Shown here: piece after piece, positions 1-5,385 of the stretch
How the letters are laid out: every line of letters begins with the position of its first letter
How positions within the stretch are numbered: position 1 is the stretch's first letter
Origin: a virus
Lineage: Duplodnaviria > Heunggongvirae > Uroviricota > Caudoviricetes
Reading direction: 5' to 3' (one strand)
DNA length: 13,516 nucleotides
Virus record (IMG/VR): IMGVR_UViG_2724679226_000002
Coordinates: 64,001-77,516 of that record
The notes under the pieces: model-generated
Database searches by the model: none
What the model saw: only the letters and a program-made list of their open reading frames with translations
Told to the model about the DNA's origin: nothing
Made by a program: the position numbers and the translations under genes

Positions 1-2
1 AG

Positions 3-32
3 AGTGCTTTAAGACAAGCAGGGCTACTATAG
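3..32 (+). CDS. hicA: HicA-family mRNA interferase toxin, 3' end only (partial)
   Basis: Frame starting at 3 reads SALRQAGLL-stop (TAG 30-32), matching the typical HicA C-terminus (SILKQAGL) and lying directly before a HicB-like gene. Confidence 0.7.
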   Translation, partial: SALRQAGLL

Positions 33-40
33 CCTTGCTT
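16..40 (+). other. Stem-loop over the hicA stop codon
   Basis: AAGCAGGGCTA (16-26) / loop CTA / TAGCCTTGCTT (30-40), 11 bp with one G-U pair; no long U-tract follows. Confidence 0.55.
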
Positions 41-71
41 GTACCTCAAAAAATAAAAAAGGAGGGATTTT

Positions 72-506
72 ATGGACGTAACTTACCCAGCGATTATAAC
101 AAAAGAGGAGGGACTTTTTTACATATGTTTTCCTGATGTTGTTTTAAATGAGGATGACAAAGGACAGGAATATATTTTATATTCAACATATGGAGAAAGT
201 TTAGAGCATGCAATAGAAATGGGGAAAGAATGGCTAACTCTAGCTCTTGAGGAATACGAGGAGGAGAAAAAAGAGTTTCCAAAACCTAGCTCTATTGAAG
301 AAATAAAAAAGAATATAAAAAATAATCAGGAAGTAGTTTATTTGACAATGAATTATGAATACGAAAAATCTTTGATTAGGGTATCATATGTCAAAAAAAC
401 GTTAACTATTCCAAACCATTTAAATATTCTTGCACAAAATAAAAATATAAACTTTTCCCAAGTTCTACAAAAGGCTTTAAAGAAAGAGCTTGGGATAAGA
501 GATTAA
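72..506 (+). CDS. hicB: HicB-family antitoxin with C-terminal ribbon-helix-helix domain
   Basis: N-terminus YPAII...FYICFPD...GESLEHAIEMGKEWL...FPKPS is HicB-like; C-terminus KKTLTIP...NINFSQVLQKAL is RHH-like; SD GGAGGG upstream. Confidence 0.88.
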   Translation: MDVTYPAIITKEEGLFYICFPDVVLNEDDKGQEYILYSTYGESLEHAIEMGKEWLTLALEEYEEEKKEFPKPSSIEEIKKNIKNNQEVVYLTMNYEYEKSLIRVSYVKKTLTIPNHLNILAQNKNINFSQVLQKALKKELGIRD

Positions 507-538
507 AGAAGCGAGAGAGAATCTTGCTTCTTTTTTTT
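505..538 (+). terminator. Intrinsic terminator after hicB
   Basis: AAAGAAGCGAGA (505-516) / TCTTGCTTCTTT (522-533), with T8 at 531-538. Confidence 0.85.
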
Positions 539-556
539 ATTTTTTTAAAAAAGTTG

Positions 557-585
557 TTGACATATATTTGAATATGGTGTATACT
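557..585 (+). promoter_or_regulatory. Near-consensus sigma70 promoter of the accessory operon
   Basis: TTGACA (557-562), 17-bp spacer, TATACT (580-585); A/T tract upstream could act as an UP element. Confidence 0.9.
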
Positions 586-593
586 ATATTCAA
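568..593. promoter_or_regulatory. Inverted repeat (putative operator) across the -10 box
   Basis: TTGAATATGGT (568-578) / ACTATATTCAA (583-593); the 8-bp core arms TTGAATAT/ATATTCAA are perfect. Confidence 0.65.
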
Positions 594-620
594 GAAAAGA
601 GATTAAAAGGAGTGGTAAAA

Positions 621-827
621 ATGACAAGGACAGAAATTTTAAAGGAAATGAATAGATTGGCTAACATGCTTCAAGAGTTGGACGGAGACCACAAGGTCGA
701 AAGAACAATCAGCGAAGGTATGGAAGTTATGAAATTTACGCTAAACCTTAATTATAGCGTAAGCTATGATAAGGACGAAGCTTTAGAAGTTGCAGAAACA
801 ATCAATGAAGATTGTTTCCAATATTAA
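621..827 (+). CDS. Small acidic hypothetical protein (68 aa)
   Basis: SD AGGAG (608-612) is 8 nt before ATG 621, which is preferred over GTG 612; first gene behind the strong promoter; 15 D/E versus 7 K/R. Confidence 0.8.
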   Translation: MTRTEILKEMNRLANMLQELDGDHKVERTISEGMEVMKFTLNLNYSVSYDKDEALEVAETINEDCFQY

Positions 828-843
828 GAAAGGAGGAAACTTT

Positions 844-1263
844 ATGAAAGAAGCGAGAATATGGAGAAGAGGAAATAGCGTTGTAAGCAAAACGCCTTAC
901 AACGAAGAATTTATAAATTTTGCTAGAGAACAAAAAGCAAAATGGAACTCTAGTGAAAAAACTTGGATTTTCGCAGATACAGATTTAGAATCTGTAAAAG
1001 CGGAAATGGAAAAATATTTTGATGTTGTAGTTGGAAAAATCCAATTACACGATGAAGGAAACTTTGCCATTCTAAGAGAAGAAAAACATGAATGGCAAGA
1101 ATTGAGCAAGGAGTTACAAAACTACTTGCTAGAAAGAGCAAAGCCGAGAGAAAAAAACGGCAAGCTCGAAATAAGTTTTGGAATGAGCATTGGGTTAAAA
1201 GTCAATGCGACCAAAACAGAAAATGGATTTACAATAGACGATACTGCTATTGTAAATGAATAA
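844..1263 (+). CDS. Hypothetical protein (139 aa), N-terminal HARP/DUF5710-like pattern
   Basis: SD AGGAGG before ATG 844 (the track start 790 overlaps the previous gene). TPYNEEFI...KWN...KTWIF resembles the HARP-like PY-x-WD-x-W pattern; the domain call is by eye. Confidence 0.7.
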   Translation: MKEARIWRRGNSVVSKTPYNEEFINFAREQKAKWNSSEKTWIFADTDLESVKAEMEKYFDVVVGKIQLHDEGNFAILREEKHEWQELSKELQNYLLERAKPREKNGKLEISFGMSIGLKVNATKTENGFTIDDTAIVNE

Positions 1264-1295
1264 AAAACTTTTAAAAAAATAAAGGAGTGAAGAAA

Positions 1296-1928
1296 ATGAA
1301 CACATTAAGTCAAAAAATAAAAGAATGCGAAGAAGCAATAAAGGATAAAAATCTTATCCTATTGGAATTGTATTGGAAAGCAGGGAAATTTCTATATTTC
1401 GAAGTACAAAAAGAAAAAGAATATCCTCTTTTCATTAAAGAAATAAAAAATCTAAAAGAAAAATTATCCAAAAGAGGATTGAATGTTAAAGAAATTAAAA
1501 ATTTTTTTCAAGAAGATGAAGCCTACAACAATCAAAGACTTCTTTTTTTCGAAATAAAACGAGTATTTGAAAAAGAAAATTTTATGAGAAAAACGAAAAT
1601 TAGAAAAACAATGATACATGAGTTTTCGCAAGAAGAACATTATCATTGGATTTATAGTAATAAAACAAAACATTACTATATGCCAAAACATTTTTGTTTA
1701 GACTATGAAGAGGCATATATAGTGGGAAATCATTTCGTAATCGACGACAAATGTTCACACAGAGAGTTGGCGGACGATATAAACGAAAAAAGTCTACTAA
1801 TTATGTGCTTAGTAGAGGATGTCGAAGAAATACATTGCAAACCCTACAGAATTTTCGTTGATTGCAAAGATAACGAAAATACAATCAAAGAAAAAGTAGA
1901 AGAAGCATTAAAATTTTTTAAAAACTAA
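1296..1928 (+). CDS. Hypothetical protein (210 aa), N-terminus resembling DUF1016_N (YhcG-like)
   Basis: SD AAAGGAG (1281-1287) is 8 nt before ATG 1296; LLELYWKAGK resembles the DUF1016_N LYW-x-IG motif; C-terminal half not recognised. Confidence 0.7.
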   Translation: MNTLSQKIKECEEAIKDKNLILLELYWKAGKFLYFEVQKEKEYPLFIKEIKNLKEKLSKRGLNVKEIKNFFQEDEAYNNQRLLFFEIKRVFEKENFMRKTKIRKTMIHEFSQEEHYHWIYSNKTKHYYMPKHFCLDYEEAYIVGNHFVIDDKCSHRELADDINEKSLLIMCLVEDVEEIHCKPYRIFVDCKDNENTIKEKVEEALKFFKN

Positions 1929-1965
1929 AAAAAGCCTACTTGGAAGTACCAGTTTCAAGTAGGCT
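1927..1965 (-). terminator. Minus-strand intrinsic terminator
   Basis: AGCCTACTTGGAA (1933-1945) / TTTCAAGTAGGCT (1953-1965); the A7 run at 1927-1933 gives a U-tract only on the minus strand. Confidence 0.75.
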
Positions 1966-1990
1966 ATATAAAAAATAGAGTGGTATCTCC
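1927..1990 (-). ncRNA. Putative ~65-nt antisense small RNA
   Basis: Bounded by a minus-strand promoter upstream and a minus-strand terminator downstream, with no SD-led ORF between them. Confidence 0.5.
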
Positions 1991-1996
1991 ATGTAT

Positions 1997-2025
1997 AGTA
2001 TAGCAAAAGAGGAGGGAAAAATCAA
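1997..2025 (-). promoter_or_regulatory. Minus-strand sigma70 promoter with extended -10
   Basis: Minus strand reads TTGATT (2025-2020), 17 bp, TATACT (2002-1997), with TG-n-TATACT (TG at 2005-2004). Confidence 0.6.
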
Positions 2026-2207
2026 TGGAAAATGGACATGGAGGAAAAAGGGAAGGAGCTGGAAGACCAAAAAGCTCAACGAAAATTTATAAAACAGTAA
2101 GACTTGAAAAAGACTTACTGGATAAAATCGAAAAAATAGAAGGGACCTTCACTAGTAAAATAGTGAGAGGTCTAGAATTACTTTTAGAAAAGGAGAAAAA
2201 ACAATGA
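2025..2207 (+). CDS. Small DNA-binding protein (60 aa): GGxRxGAGRP motif plus ribbon-helix-helix-like domain
   Basis: GGKREGAGRPK, then beta-strand YKTVRL, helix EKDLLDKIEK, turn GTF, helix TSKIVRGLELLLE; SD GAGGAGGG at 2009-2016. Confidence 0.75.
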   Translation: MENGHGGKREGAGRPKSSTKIYKTVRLEKDLLDKIEKIEGTFTSKIVRGLELLLEKEKKQ

Positions 2208-2785
2208 AAAAATTTAAATTAGAGGATAGAATAAAAAAAGAAGTCTATATGAATTTTTATGATTTACTTCTTGAATATTGCAAGAAGGGAAGAATAAAAA
2301 TGGAAGAAAAATATGGATATTTAGGAGAAGGAGATAAAGTTTATCTTGAAAAAATAAACTTTATTTATAATGAATGCTTCTGTAACAAGGAATTTGATTC
2401 TGCAAGAAAAGTTGCAGACATAACAAGTTATGTCTGTTTTCATGGGAATAATTATATTATGCCCGTGTTAAGACTTTTACTAGAAATCGAAAATCAAAGT
2501 GTTCGAAACGAATTATTCAAGCACTTTGGAGAAGTTTTGAAGAAAACAGAAGAGTTTGATAAAGAAAAAAACAAACTCTTAATCATAAACGGTTGGGAAG
2601 GAACTACCAACCAAATATCAAGAAGAAACTATACAGCACTTCTTGAGTTTAAGAGAATTGTAGATTATACAATTACTCAAAAGGAACTAGATTATTCTGT
2701 AGTTCCAAATATCATGATAGAAAGAGAAATATTTACTAATGAGAGTAAAGATTTTATCGCTATGACAATTAGAGAAGAATTTTAA
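2204..2785 (+). CDS. Hypothetical protein (193 aa)
   Basis: Long ORF coupled to the previous gene by an ATGA overlap (2204-2207) and followed by a terminator; no family recognised. Confidence 0.75.
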   Translation: MKKFKLEDRIKKEVYMNFYDLLLEYCKKGRIKMEEKYGYLGEGDKVYLEKINFIYNECFCNKEFDSARKVADITSYVCFHGNNYIMPVLRLLLEIENQSVRNELFKHFGEVLKKTEEFDKEKNKLLIINGWEGTTNQISRRNYTALLEFKRIVDYTITQKELDYSVVPNIMIEREIFTNESKDFIAMTIREEF

Positions 2786-2799
2786 TTATTCTATAGCTT

Positions 2800-2835
2800 A
2801 AGACTGTAAACAGAAATGTTTGCAGTCTTTTTTTT
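2800..2835 (+). terminator. Intrinsic terminator closing the accessory operon
   Basis: AAGACTGTAAACA (2800-2812) / GAAA loop / TGTTTGCAGTCTT (2817-2829), then a T-run to 2835. Confidence 0.9.
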
Positions 2836-2976
2836 ATTTTTTTTGAAAAAACAATATACTATTTTCGTCTTTTTTTATGTTTTTTTCTAAAAAAGCATAA
2901 AAAATGCAAAAAAATTAACAAAATTGTTAACCCTCATCTATTAGTAGAGAGCATAGTGCGAGGGAGGTGACTAAGA

Positions 2977-3927
2977 ATGAAAAAAAGATTGAAAGTGTTT
3001 GAAAGTGGTAATTATCCTCAAGGAAATTTTGAAGCAGACAGAGTGAAAGCTGTTTTTGAAAAAGTTGTAGATAAAATTCCGGGTATTTTTGCTCATAGCT
3101 CACATTGGGCAAAGAAAGAAGAAGAACCTGTTTCAGTTGGAGAATTCTCTAATTTCGAACTTTTAAATAAAAATGGAAAGTTGGTTGTATTTGGAGATGT
3201 GGAATTCAATGAAAAAGGAGCAGGATACTACAATGACAAGATTTTGGAGGGAGTATCTGTAGAAATAGATCCTAAGACAAATACTTTACACAAAATTGCA
3301 GTATTGCCAAAGGGTGTAAAACCACAGGTTGCAGGAGCGGAATTTGAGTTAAAAGAAGATGAACTACAAGGGATTTATTTACAATTTGAAGAATTTGAGG
3401 AGGAAAAAATGACACTAGAACAAATTATGGCAACATTCCCAGTTCTTTCTTTAGATGATAGAGCAAAATTAATCAATAGTTTGGTTTCGACTGTTACTGA
3501 CGAAGAAAGAAGCGGAATGAGAAAACTTATGGAATGGGAAAAAGTAGAAGCAATTCAAGTAGAACCGAAAGTTCCGAAAACAGAAGATGAAATTCGAGCA
3601 GAAATCACAGCTCAAATGGAATTTGAAGCAAAAAGAAATCAATTGATTGAAAAGGCAAAAGCAAAATTCACACCAGCACAACAAGAATTTATTGAATTTG
3701 CATTAAAGAAAGCAGGAGAAGAAAGAGCAATTGTTTTGGAATTTGAATCTAATGGAAAGAAAGAAAATATGTCTTATTTTGAAAGATTTGAAAAAGCGAT
3801 AGAAACAATGGAAGACGCTGCTAATTTTACAAGCAAGACAAAAGAATTAGAATTTGAAAACAAAGAAGAAAAAACAGATATGATGAAGCAAGCTTATGAT
3901 AGAACAAAAGCTAGATTTTCAAAGTAA
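2977..3927 (+). CDS. Prohead protease/scaffold protein (Mu gpI-like arrangement)
   Basis: First gene of the head block; globular N-terminal domain (LKVFESGNYPQG...GVSVEI) and acidic coiled-coil C-terminal half; SD GGAGGTG. Confidence 0.65.
   Translation: MKKRLKVFESGNYPQGNFEADRVKAVFEKVVDKIPGIFAHSSHWAKKEEEPVSVGEFSNFELLNKNGKLVVFGDVEFNEKGAGYYNDKILEGVSVEIDPKTNTLHKIAVLPKGVKPQVAGAEFELKEDELQGIYLQFEEFEEEKMTLEQIMATFPVLSLDDRAKLINSLVSTVTDEERSGMRKLMEWEKVEAIQVEPKVPKTEDEIRAEITAQMEFEAKRNQLIEKAKAKFTPAQQEFIEFALKKAGEERAIVLEFESNGKKENMSYFERFEKAIETMEDAANFTSKTKELEFENKEEKTDMMKQAYDRTKARFSK
3409..3927 (+). CDS. Putative internally initiated scaffold protein (172 aa)
   Basis: In-frame ATG 3409 (codon 145) with GGAGG at 3399-3403, at the start of the helical half. 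Confidence 0.55.
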   Translation: MTLEQIMATFPVLSLDDRAKLINSLVSTVTDEERSGMRKLMEWEKVEAIQVEPKVPKTEDEIRAEITAQMEFEAKRNQLIEKAKAKFTPAQQEFIEFALKKAGEERAIVLEFESNGKKENMSYFERFEKAIETMEDAANFTSKTKELEFENKEEKTDMMKQAYDRTKARFSK

Positions 3928-3939
3928 TAGGAGGAAAAG

Positions 3940-4041
3940 ATGACAAAAATAGGAGTTTTAATGTTTGTGTTAGCGGTAATTGGAACTGCTGCACATTTTT
4001 GGAACAAAAAACATAACGAAAGAAAAGGAGGGAAAAAATAA
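3940..4041 (+). CDS. Small single-pass membrane peptide (33 aa), not in the ORF track
   Basis: SD GGAGGA (3930-3935); MTKIGVLMFVLAVIGTAAHFWNKKHNERKGGKK; its stop overlaps the next start (TAATG at 4039-4043). Confidence 0.75.
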   Translation: MTKIGVLMFVLAVIGTAAHFWNKKHNERKGGKK

Positions 4042-4391
4042 TGGCTAAATATGAAAGAAAAGAAAAAGAGTTAGCACAAATTGTAGAAGATACTCTTACT
4101 ATAGCTGGAGTAGTGAAGCAAGATGAAGATGTGGATCTTTATTCTTTAGTTGCATACAATCATTCAGAAGAAAAATGGGTTAAGTTTGTTAAAGAAACAC
4201 ATAAAACTGGTTTTGCAATAGCGATGGTTAAAAAAGAAAAAGGAACAGAATTTGACAATACTGGAAAGGACGATGTAGTTCCATTATTAAAAATTGGAAT
4301 TGTAAATAAAGAGGTAGTAAAAAAGGCATTTTCAGAATTAGATGAAGAAACAGTAGGAATTTGTTTGGCACAAGGATTAGCAATTCTTTAA
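4041..4391 (+). CDS. Probable head decoration protein (116 aa)
   Basis: Size and position between scaffold and major capsid genes; beta-rich small protein; synteny-based call. Confidence 0.55.
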   Translation: MAKYERKEKELAQIVEDTLTIAGVVKQDEDVDLYSLVAYNHSEEKWVKFVKETHKTGFAIAMVKKEKGTEFDNTGKDDVVPLLKIGIVNKEVVKKAFSELDEETVGICLAQGLAIL

Positions 4392-4410
4392 TAAGAAAAG
4401 GAGGAAATGA

Positions 4411-5385
4411 ATGTTAACAGAAAGACAAAAAGAATACATTGGGGTATATGCAGCAATTCCAAGTCCTAATATGTTTTACTGGGATTTGTTTAGAGAAGCA
4501 AGAGAGGCATATTTGGGACTAGGAGAAACAATCAATTTAAATGAAGTTATGGCAGAAATGAAGGAAGCAGGAATTGTACCAAGAGATACAGAATTACCAC
4601 CTATGACAATAAATGGAAATGTAGCAGTTTCTATCACTCCTGACATCGTTGGAAACTCTGTTGGAATCTCTGCATTAGATTCTATCAATGCGAACAGAAC
4701 AGATACTGTAGTGGTAAATGGGCAACAAATGACAGCTTCTCAATATGATGTTGAGAACAAAACTATGACTTTGAAGAATTCTATTTGCAATACAACAAAT
4801 AGAATGGCCGCACAAGCTTTGCTGACTGGAAAAGTGAAATGTGCAGGAAATCAAGAAGTTGACATGAAGTTGCCGAAAGATGTTGAAGTAAACAGTAAAC
4901 CAAAATCTTGGGTAACTTTCTTTGTAGAAAAAATCAACGATTATCAAATTGAAACTGGATATATGCCAAGCTACATTTTGGTAGGATCTAAAATTGCAGC
5001 AGAACTAATTACAGAAATTCAAAATACAAAAGCAAGTTTATTGGCTGCAAAAGTAGAAAAGAAAGGACAATCTGCAATTATCAATATCAATGGAGTTTTA
5101 AGTGAAATTAGAACTTTACCACCTGCGATTGGATATACAAATTTAATCAAAGAAACAGAAGATAAAGTTTTCCTTATTAACAATATGAGCTTAGTTCCAT
5201 TATATGCAGGATTGGAATTTGTAGGAGATACAAATAATCCTGAAATGATGAGAGGAGATGTGTTTGTTGATAAAGGAGATGTCAATAAGCAAACAGGTAG
5301 AGCTACTTTGTTTGCAAAATCTGCTCCATTCCCAGCTATCGCATTACCTAAATTGATTAAAGTTTATAAAGTTACTTTAGGATAA
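4411..5385 (+). CDS. Major capsid protein (lambda gpE / phage capsid E-like)
   Basis: 324 aa, strong SD GGAGG, canonical position; FYWDLF...GIVPRDTELPP...TTNRMAAQALLTG...SAPFP pattern resembles capsid E family proteins. Confidence 0.8.
   Translation: MLTERQKEYIGVYAAIPSPNMFYWDLFREAREAYLGLGETINLNEVMAEMKEAGIVPRDTELPPMTINGNVAVSITPDIVGNSVGISALDSINANRTDTVVVNGQQMTASQYDVENKTMTLKNSICNTTNRMAAQALLTGKVKCAGNQEVDMKLPKDVEVNSKPKSWVTFFVEKINDYQIETGYMPSYILVGSKIAAELITEIQNTKASLLAAKVEKKGQSAIININGVLSEIRTLPPAIGYTNLIKETEDKVFLINNMSLVPLYAGLEFVGDTNNPEMMRGDVFVDKGDVNKQTGRATLFAKSAPFPAIALPKLIKVYKVTLG

Follow-up and report, generated by a model that had tools for sequence, protein, structure and literature searches.

In Mu-like Pseudomonas phages of the JBD30/D3112 group, anti-CRISPR (acr) genes reportedly form acr-aca1 loci, and in JBD30-type phages the acr slot is said to lie between a G-family gene and the scaffold and capsid genes. 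The morons of lambdoid phages are likewise said to be units of a promoter, a gene and a terminator inserted between late genes. The immI region of phage P22 contains the promoter Pant, arc, the antisense RNA sar, and ant, with Mnt as a further repressor, and the operator of its ribbon-helix-helix (RHH) repressor lies inside a strong promoter. The locus described here is an operon of five genes, g1 to g5, in the final 13.5 kb (G000:C1:64001-77516, 13,516 nucleotides, hereafter "the window") of a 77.5-kb IMG/VR virus record, G000. It is read here, tentatively and at somewhat less than an even chance, as a self-repressed accessory operon of the acr-aca type, whose cargo most likely serves counter-defence or host takeover.

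A related arrangement has recently been described in Pasteurella multocida, in which Aca14, an RHH protein of 66 residues, regulates anti-CRISPR operons (bioRxiv 10.64898/2026.07.27.740549; PMC13551039). The binding site of Aca14 is an inverted repeat that covers the −10 box; Aca14 acts as repressor of its own operon as well as of an adjacent anti-defence operon and is associated with cargo that lacks annotation, and PAPS-reductase operons are among the Aca-regulated operons of that study (bioRxiv 10.64898/2026.07.27.740549). In archaeal viruses, a conserved strong promoter/operator motif marks scattered early anti-defence units, and the motif can be used for finding candidates (PMC11065993).

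Judged from sequence, the Aca14-regulated operons are the closest known system, and the window operon appears to be a further variant of this recently described kind of RHH protein and operator. As in the Aca14 system, the operon encodes a small strand-helix-helix protein (60-66 amino acids, aa), its −10 box is covered by an inverted repeat that recurs before further operons, and the cargo is variable and often unannotated. A PAPS-reductase operon is also found behind the promoter and palindrome of the window type, in contig L011. Unlike Aca14, whose printed sequence lacks it, g4 has an N-terminal HGGxRxGAGRP arm. The operators differ as well, being TGTATATG...CATATACA for Aca14 and TTGA-N5-GTRTATACT-N4-TCAA for the window operon. 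Furthermore, none of the operons with the g4 cassette contains a known acr gene, and repression is proposed here whereas it was measured for Aca14.

Layout of the operon

The operon and its framing terminators occupy positions 505-2839 of the window, and consist of the following features.

505-545, + strand: intrinsic terminator, a 12-pair stem (505-533) followed by a T-run, which closes the preceding hicAB unit and insulates the operon
557-585, + strand: sigma-70 promoter with TTGACA (557-562), a 17-nt spacer and TATACT (580-585), scoring 11/12
568-593, unstranded: 26-bp palindrome TTGA-N5-GTRTATACT-N4-TCAA, the proposed operator, with arms at 568-578 and 583-593
621-827, + strand: g1, encoding an acidic 68-aa orphan with an isoelectric point (pI) of 4.4
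844-1263, + strand: g2, encoding 139 aa with a HARP/DUF5710-like N-terminal domain
1296-1928, + strand: g3, encoding a 210-aa orphan
2025-2207, + strand: g4, encoding a basic 60-aa protein with an HGGKREGAGRP arm and then strand-helix-helix
2204-2785, + strand: g5, encoding a 193-aa orphan, with its start overlapping the g4 stop in ATGA
2800-2839, + strand: intrinsic terminator, a 13-pair stem (2800-2829) followed by a T-run, which closes the operon before the head genes

All of the elements on which the original prediction of an anti-defence operon was built, namely the two terminators, the consensus promoter with its overlapping palindrome, the five genes, the coupling of the 193-aa gene and the head block behind it, are thus present. 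The promoter at 557 is the top-scoring match within window 1-4500, and inspection of its sequence reveals no canonical extended −10 element. Because this AT-rich DNA has no excess of promoter-like matches overall (17 found, 16.6 expected), the weight of the promoter rests on its conservation and not on its score. The two arms of the palindrome, 11 nt each, are 91% complementary and 4 nt apart, and they cover the −10 box together with the expected transcription start. An AGGAG-type ribosome site precedes every gene from g1 to g5.

Recurrence of the promoter-operator element

Promoter, palindrome and leader form a 56-nt stretch that is found at two other places in G000, at 49044 (− strand, 95% identity; palindrome at 49008) and at 4648 (80% identity; palindrome at 4659), and the related Fusobacterium phage phiFN37 likewise holds three copies of promoter and palindrome. 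TTGACA, the outer TTGA, the central GTRTATACT and the outer TCAA are constant across the copies. Four to five inner bases per arm vary between them, sometimes symmetrically, as in TTGAATAT/ATATTCAA versus TTGATTA/TAATCAA. The two further units of G000 are given below; here and hereafter, L-numbers (L002-L103) denote the contigs or fragments compared, L002 and L003 being fragments of G000 and L004 being phiFN37.

G000 4436-5293 (L003 1289-2146): second copy, driving a single gene for a 192-aa orphan
G000 48095-49044 (L002), − strand: third copy, driving genes of 57, 95 and 68 aa, the last of which encodes a DUF7167 protein

The unit at 48095-49044 is oriented against the surrounding DNA-modification and ParB genes. 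The copy at 4648 directly follows a 52-nt tandem array of 2.8 copies and a terminator. Other contigs carry the element in further surroundings: in L010 the promoter drives a 170-aa gene after the lysis cassette, and in L008 (3345-5509) the promoter/operator with the 192-aa gene adjoins a 415-aa open reading frame that, read by eye, resembles an IS605-family TnpB gene. Because the same palindrome stands before two other cargo units, a single regulator may control a small regulon.

Two other proteins were considered as binders of the palindrome and rejected. CI was set aside since the immunity region lacks the palindrome, and HicB since the hicAB promoter lacks it too. The CI-type operators of the immunity region read TATACGG-N5-ACGTATA, and because of this different sequence the palindrome is not regarded as a CI site.

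Outside the close relatives, a strict operator pattern gave zero matches in genome contigs, and a relaxed pattern with 22 fixed bases gave nothing new in viral contigs and matched 16 metagenome contigs with GC contents of 0.29-0.56. In 9 of these 16, a gene with the arm motif GGxRxG[AT]GR is located downstream of the operator on the same strand, and in none of the 16 is such a gene found elsewhere. This arm-type gene usually comes second, the gene before it being small and variable. In L032 about 1.9 kb of cargo precedes it, and no further complete gene of the arm type lies between it and the contig end.

There is a more elaborate case in a Fusobacterium element, L011 (223-4700), in which the operator/promoter is followed by genes for 121 aa, 126 aa, an SNF2 helicase, a PAPS reductase/DUF3440 protein, a ParB_N protein, a homologue of g4 and a 113-aa protein, and then by a terminator. 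Judging from these genes, this is a DNA-modification-type operon under what appears to be the same switch. Its g4 homologue (P0006) is 65% identical to g4, and is found in a set of short contigs after SNF2-helicase, PAPS-reductase/DUF3440 and ParB_N genes, L011 being the longest of the set.

The protein encoded by g4 is the proposed regulator. In six-frame translations, the GGxRxG[AT]GR motif is found once in the 77.5-kb genome, where g4 is a single-copy gene, once in the approximately 85 kb of phiFN37 sequence that was covered, and never outside the operons in the contigs. Alignments of the g4 family have a strand-helix-helix pattern, and g4 itself matches PHROG 876, annotated as "transcriptional repressor", weakly (E 0.0023), while a profile of the family gave no match in PDB. 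The HGG(K/R)REGAGRP arm by itself is very common, with more than 599 stretches found. From their sequences, an arm and strand-helix module heads likely S24-peptidase repressors in Acinetobacter and Bacteroidales, and the arm also heads IS200-like transposases with many copies per myxococcotal or deltaproteobacterial genome. It is located at the C-terminus of HicB-like proteins in Chlamydiae and is present in stand-alone proteins of 55-66 aa as well. A role of g4 as a DNA-binding repressor is supported by the module heading S24-peptidase-like repressors elsewhere, and g4 would represent one specificity class within a broad DNA-binding module. Repression of the palindrome at 568-593 by g4 is considered likely.

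Cargo, setting and competing readings

The flanks of the operon are 95-99% identical to those of phiFN37, and the content of the operon differs between relatives with 96-99% identity in the flanks. In the slot of g1, phiFN37 has an unrelated 63-aa gene, and five further relatives, among them a prophage inside a 2.44-Mb F. necrophorum chromosome, have one of 125 aa; the three first-slot proteins are mutually unrelated and all acidic (pI 4.4-4.8). The g3 gene is absent from phiFN37 and is found at 89.5% identity in L019-L023. In L007 the cargo is wholly different, with genes of 170 aa, 543 aa (DUF4116), 122 aa and 134 aa, and g5 is absent, while a g4 homologue of 60% identity is the last gene before the terminator. 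Since the 125-aa first-slot protein is homologous to that of the third cargo gene of L007 (E 6e-9), cargo appears to shuffle between slots. The only gene kept in every variant of the locus is g4, which persists in four cargo contexts (the window type, phiFN37, L007 and L011). Comparison of the interval among relatives thus reveals swapped cargo, presence or absence of g3, and retention of g4.

With a promoter of its own, terminators on both sides, a location within the late-gene block and content that is variable among close relatives, the operon has the layout by which morons are defined, and resembles the lambdoid ones as an autonomous, terminator-framed unit in a virion block. Unlike those, it has five genes and a proposed repressor and operator of its own, and because the operator is common to three units, a coordinated and switchable expression is implied rather than a constitutive one.

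The window phage is a temperate F. necrophorum siphovirus and a relative of phiFN37 (OR492271.1, 85 kb, host F. necrophorum FN37), which matches the first 8 kb of the window at 97.8% identity over 89% of that length. The genes of phiFN37 include those for a CI-like repressor, an integrase, Bet/RecE-type recombination proteins and queuosine-type DNA modification, and G000 encodes a 345-aa repressor with helix-turn-helix and S24-peptidase domains. The head module is Mu-type, in the order of a Portal_Mu and Mu_F fusion, a Phage_tail_S gene of the Mu G family, an island, a scaffold-like gene and the capsid gene. The operon is the last unit of this accessory island of about 7 kb, and behind it the 316-aa scaffold-like head gene, which precedes the capsid gene, begins at 2977. 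Immediately before the operon lies the following pair.

Window 2-136 and 72-506 (G000 63850-64506): a complete hicA-hicB toxin-antitoxin pair, closed by the terminator at 505-533

HicA matches Pfam at E 5e-24 and HicB matches PHROG 497 at E 2e-30. In the gap between the terminator of the operon and the scaffold-like gene, a near-perfect 16-bp palindrome, TTAACAAAATTGTTAA, is located at 2915-2930. Since no sigma-70 promoter was found in this gap, the palindrome may be a candidate site for a late-gene activator.

Because the head module is Mu-type, with a G-family gene before the slot and scaffold and capsid genes after it, the position corresponds to that of the Pseudomonas acr loci, and the positional analogy drawn in the original prediction stands. 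Like the acr-aca1 loci, the operon occupies a Mu-type head slot that follows the G-family gene and immediately precedes those for scaffold and capsid, and has a strong promoter with inverted repeats and a regulator gene at or near its 3′ end. Unlike those loci, its regulator is RHH-like and not of the helix-turn-helix type, its slot also holds the defence and toxin-antitoxin island of about 7 kb, and its host is a low-GC Fusobacterium. An acr-aca-like architecture is borne out, with variable orphan cargo behind a strong promoter and its palindromic operator, together with a conserved small gene for a putative DNA-binding protein. The layout with an Aca-like regulator gains strength from the operator at three promoters per genome and from its travelling with the arm-type gene into other operons and contigs.

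The cargo proteins are near-orphans. Only three to four homologue clusters each are found for g2, g4 and g5 among 5.8 billion proteins (three for g2), so that deep alignments of these proteins are not buildable. In the model of g2, residues 1-63 are the only confident part, with predicted local distance difference test (pLDDT) values of 76-94, and the C-terminal half is unmodelled. In Foldseek searches, the modelled N-terminal domain resembles SMARCAL1, ZRANB3, HARP and DUF5710 entries (E 1e-3 to 1e-2), and against solved folds in PDB it gives generic matches with Z scores of 5-6.5 at most. A match of g2 to PDB entry 21nr, "TLP-IPT" (E 7e-5), was ignored since no aligned stretch passes on its own. 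By eye, the stretch KPNEAITSTLKSLGFKFSPYNGW in the first gene behind the operator of a contig of about 50% GC (L033 294-677, − strand) recalls the HARP/DUF5710-like motif of g2.

For g3, no lead was obtained from families, PDB or the ESM Atlas, and direct comparison with g5 shows the two not to be paralogues. For g5, three matches came from a full HMMER scan of 1.84 billion proteins, which added one further relative of 39% identity (L025, L026); this relative has its own TTGACA-17-TAAAAT promoter and lies without g4 beside DUF4116 and DUF7167 genes. The model of g5 (pLDDT 63.5) has no fold match, the best being an uncharacterised 170-aa protein at a TM score of 0.4. A profile comparison of g5 with the 170-aa protein in the L007 cargo gave a probability of 3%, which is not significant, and the ESM Atlas gave sub-threshold leads only (Imm30 and BrxL_N, 0.85-0.88). 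Weak PADLOC matches, PDC-S02 for g3 (E 0.014) and SerK, were set aside as noise.

Several results count against the acr-aca-type reading. As the original prediction had it, none of the proteins is recognisable as a known Acr: g1 to g5 match no Acr, anti-restriction or defence family in Pfam, PHROGs, PADLOC, NCBIfam and the PDB sequences, where they give no credible match of any kind, and the cargo of the other units behind the operator matches no anti-defence family or annotated function. A known or validated anti-defence gene, as expected in the cargo of an acr-aca operon, was not found in Pfam, PHROGs, NCBIfam and PDB sequences either. For the regulator, 0 of 10 members of the g4 family match a Pfam RHH model, and membership of g4 in the Aca14 family is left at 11 identical residues out of 30 (37%, E 0.009) in a single BLASTP comparison. 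Among 58 bacterial loci found by the arm motif (L046-L103), no such palindrome is present, so the arm alone does not predict the operator. The conservation of the operator in the metagenome matches is partly due to the design of the search, in which the conserved bases had been fixed; the linkage of the operator to the arm-type gene is free of this bias. Moreover, unlike the acr-aca1 phages, the window phage and phiFN37 are not transposable Mu-like phages, as seen from the integrase of phiFN37 and the CI-like repressor in both. Finally, most genes of the island that surrounds the operon are of the defence or toxin-antitoxin kind, and one copy of the cassette lies in an early region. Of the earlier claim of an anti-defence operon with an Aca-like regulator, the regulatory part is thus upheld by the recurrence of the operator and the retention of g4, and the anti-defence part finds no backing in any family match of the cargo. 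That the cargo is anti-defence in particular is possible and rather more doubtful than probable.

Because the neighbouring island is mostly of the defence and toxin-antitoxin kind, a rival role of the cargo in defence or exclusion stays live. The operon could be a prophage-expressed moron for defence or superinfection exclusion, which is expressed from the sigma-70 promoter at a low, self-limited level in the lysogen and protects it against other phages, with g4 and g5 perhaps being a pair of toxin-antitoxin or abortive-infection type. The promoter and terminator framing and the variable presence are those of a moron, and the operon is the last unit of an island whose content, besides HicAB, includes ToxN/AbiQ in phiFN37 and a KAP NTPase with PBECR4 in L019/L020. 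The palindrome not being a CI operator, the promoter need not be silent in the lysogen. The ATGA overlap of g4 and g5 resembles those of antitoxin-toxin pairs, and arm and RHH modules are fused to HicB-like proteins in Chlamydiae. The pair is not obligate, however, since each gene is found without the other: g4 is present without g5 in L007 and L011, and the relative of g5 in L025 and L026 stands alone behind its own promoter. No toxin-family match was obtained for g5 in Pfam, PADLOC or PDB, the best PADLOC match in the operon has an E-value of only 0.014, and g4 as read from its sequence lacks the C-terminal extension after the second helix that RHH antitoxins use for holding the toxin. The small acidic first-slot genes and the DNA-modification operon behind the cassette also fit counter-defence better. 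The defence moron is accordingly an unlikely reading, to which real weight is nonetheless given.

The operon might also be an ordinary early one that serves DNA transactions or host takeover and has no link to immunity; g2 would then bind forks or DNA, and the regulator would be a Cro-like governor of early genes. In L036 the cassette is flanked by Erf and SSB genes on one side and by ParB and primase genes on the other, in an early region for recombination and replication, so that it is not restricted to anti-defence cargo. The cassette of L011 drives helicase, PAPS-reductase and ParB genes, and the modelled N-terminal domain of g2 may be akin to the DNA-binding domains of HARP/DUF5710. Core functions, on the other hand, are not expected to be swapped for unrelated genes between phages with near-identical flanks, nor to be encoded by orphans with three to four homologue clusters among billions of proteins, and the operon is located in an accessory island inside the head module and not in a replication region. 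This reading is regarded as rather improbable.

Predicted control and its meaning

Between g3 and g4, a hairpin and a candidate transcription unit on the opposite strand are found.

1933-1965, unstranded: hairpin with a 10-bp stem
1926-2025, − strand: candidate antisense small-RNA unit of about 64 nt, with TTGATT (2025-2020), 17 nt, TGcTATACT, the stem (1965-1933) and U7

Because A-rich sequence follows it on the + strand, the hairpin looks like a terminator for the − strand only. Its fold z-score is −3.2, and its stem is kept in six relatives. In phiFN37 (L004 7255-7295) the loop is reverse-complemented and the stem kept, as if the loop had been flipped by recombination across the stem. A minus-strand promoter match with a TG extension is located at 2025-1997, with the stem about 30 nt beyond, and it overlaps the ribosome site and start codon of g4. 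The antisense stretch is 97% identical among relatives, which carries little information since the overlapping ribosome site of g4 is equally invariant. No Rfam family was matched at its gathering score, the score for SdsR_RyeB, on the terminator, being 30.8 bits with a cut-off of 38. Against the unit is its absence from L007, where g4 begins 13 nt after the preceding gene. A real small RNA is conceivable here but somewhat doubtful. If real, by analogy with sar of P22 immI it could lower or delay the synthesis of g4.

Like immI, the operon has a short predicted antisense unit inside it and an operator in its promoter, and it is located among late genes. It might be asked whether it is a secondary switch of that kind, with g4 as an Arc-like RHH protein, a sar-like antisense RNA and g5 as, for example, an antirepressor, which would tune the choice between lysis and lysogeny or prophage interference, with the upstream genes as passengers. 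A small RHH-like gene behind a strong promoter whose palindrome overlaps the core promoter, a predicted 64-nt antisense RNA beside the regulator gene, equipped with a promoter and terminator, and, as in immI, the embedding among virion genes would all agree with this. Unlike in P22, where it lies between the RHH gene and the effector, the antisense unit is located upstream of the RHH-like gene; it is also a prediction, and it is absent from L007. The g5 protein is unrelated to Ant or to KilA-type antirepressors, and its gene is dispensable in relatives, being missing in L007. The proposed regulator serves operons with very different cargo, and no second maintenance repressor equivalent to Mnt was identified. 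Such a switch is quite improbable.

In the acr-aca-type reading, which is preferred, we infer binding, repression, timing and cargo function as follows. On entry, host RNA polymerase would fire the near-consensus promoter at 557 without phage factors, and the transcript would carry the fast-swapping orphans g1-g3 and g5 together with g4, with its N-terminal arm and RHH-like body. The g4 protein, probably as a dimer, would then bind the 26-bp palindrome over the −10 box and start site and shut the promoter down, and the same palindrome would gate the cargo units at G000 4648 and 49044. The cargo would most likely consist of proteins for counter-defence or host takeover, produced as a burst when the phage enters, and the antisense RNA predicted ahead of g4 may postpone the accumulation of the repressor.

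A bolder form of this proposal is speculative and, taken as a whole, unlikely. In it, TTGA-N18-TCAA over the −10 box and an RHH protein with an HGGxRxGAGR arm would be a portable Aca-like family not described before, which serves as the switch for several counter-defence units per phage, with protein cargo or with a DNA-modification operon, from Fusobacteria to hosts of about 50% GC. The genes g1-g5 would include new inhibitors of Fusobacterium immunity, and the antisense RNA would set the delay of the shut-off.

Like the regulons of archaeal viruses (PMC11065993), one motif marks several units of small genes of unknown function per genome. Unlike those, the units are in a bacterial phage with a sigma-70 promoter, only three per genome, and are known here from sequence alone (compare PMC11065993). 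If g4 and the palindrome are a true Aca-like pair, the 26-bp operator would be a cheap search key for counter-defence candidates in Fusobacterium and in unrelated metagenomic phages, and the pair would be a second RHH-type family beside the recently described Aca14.

F. necrophorum is a pathogen whose phage biology is barely explored, and we know of no anti-defence genes for its phages. The cultured pair of phiFN37 and strain FN37 carries a near-identical locus, so these predictions are directly testable. Should the cargo serve to protect the lysogen instead, this key would point to a regulon of defence genes carried by prophages.

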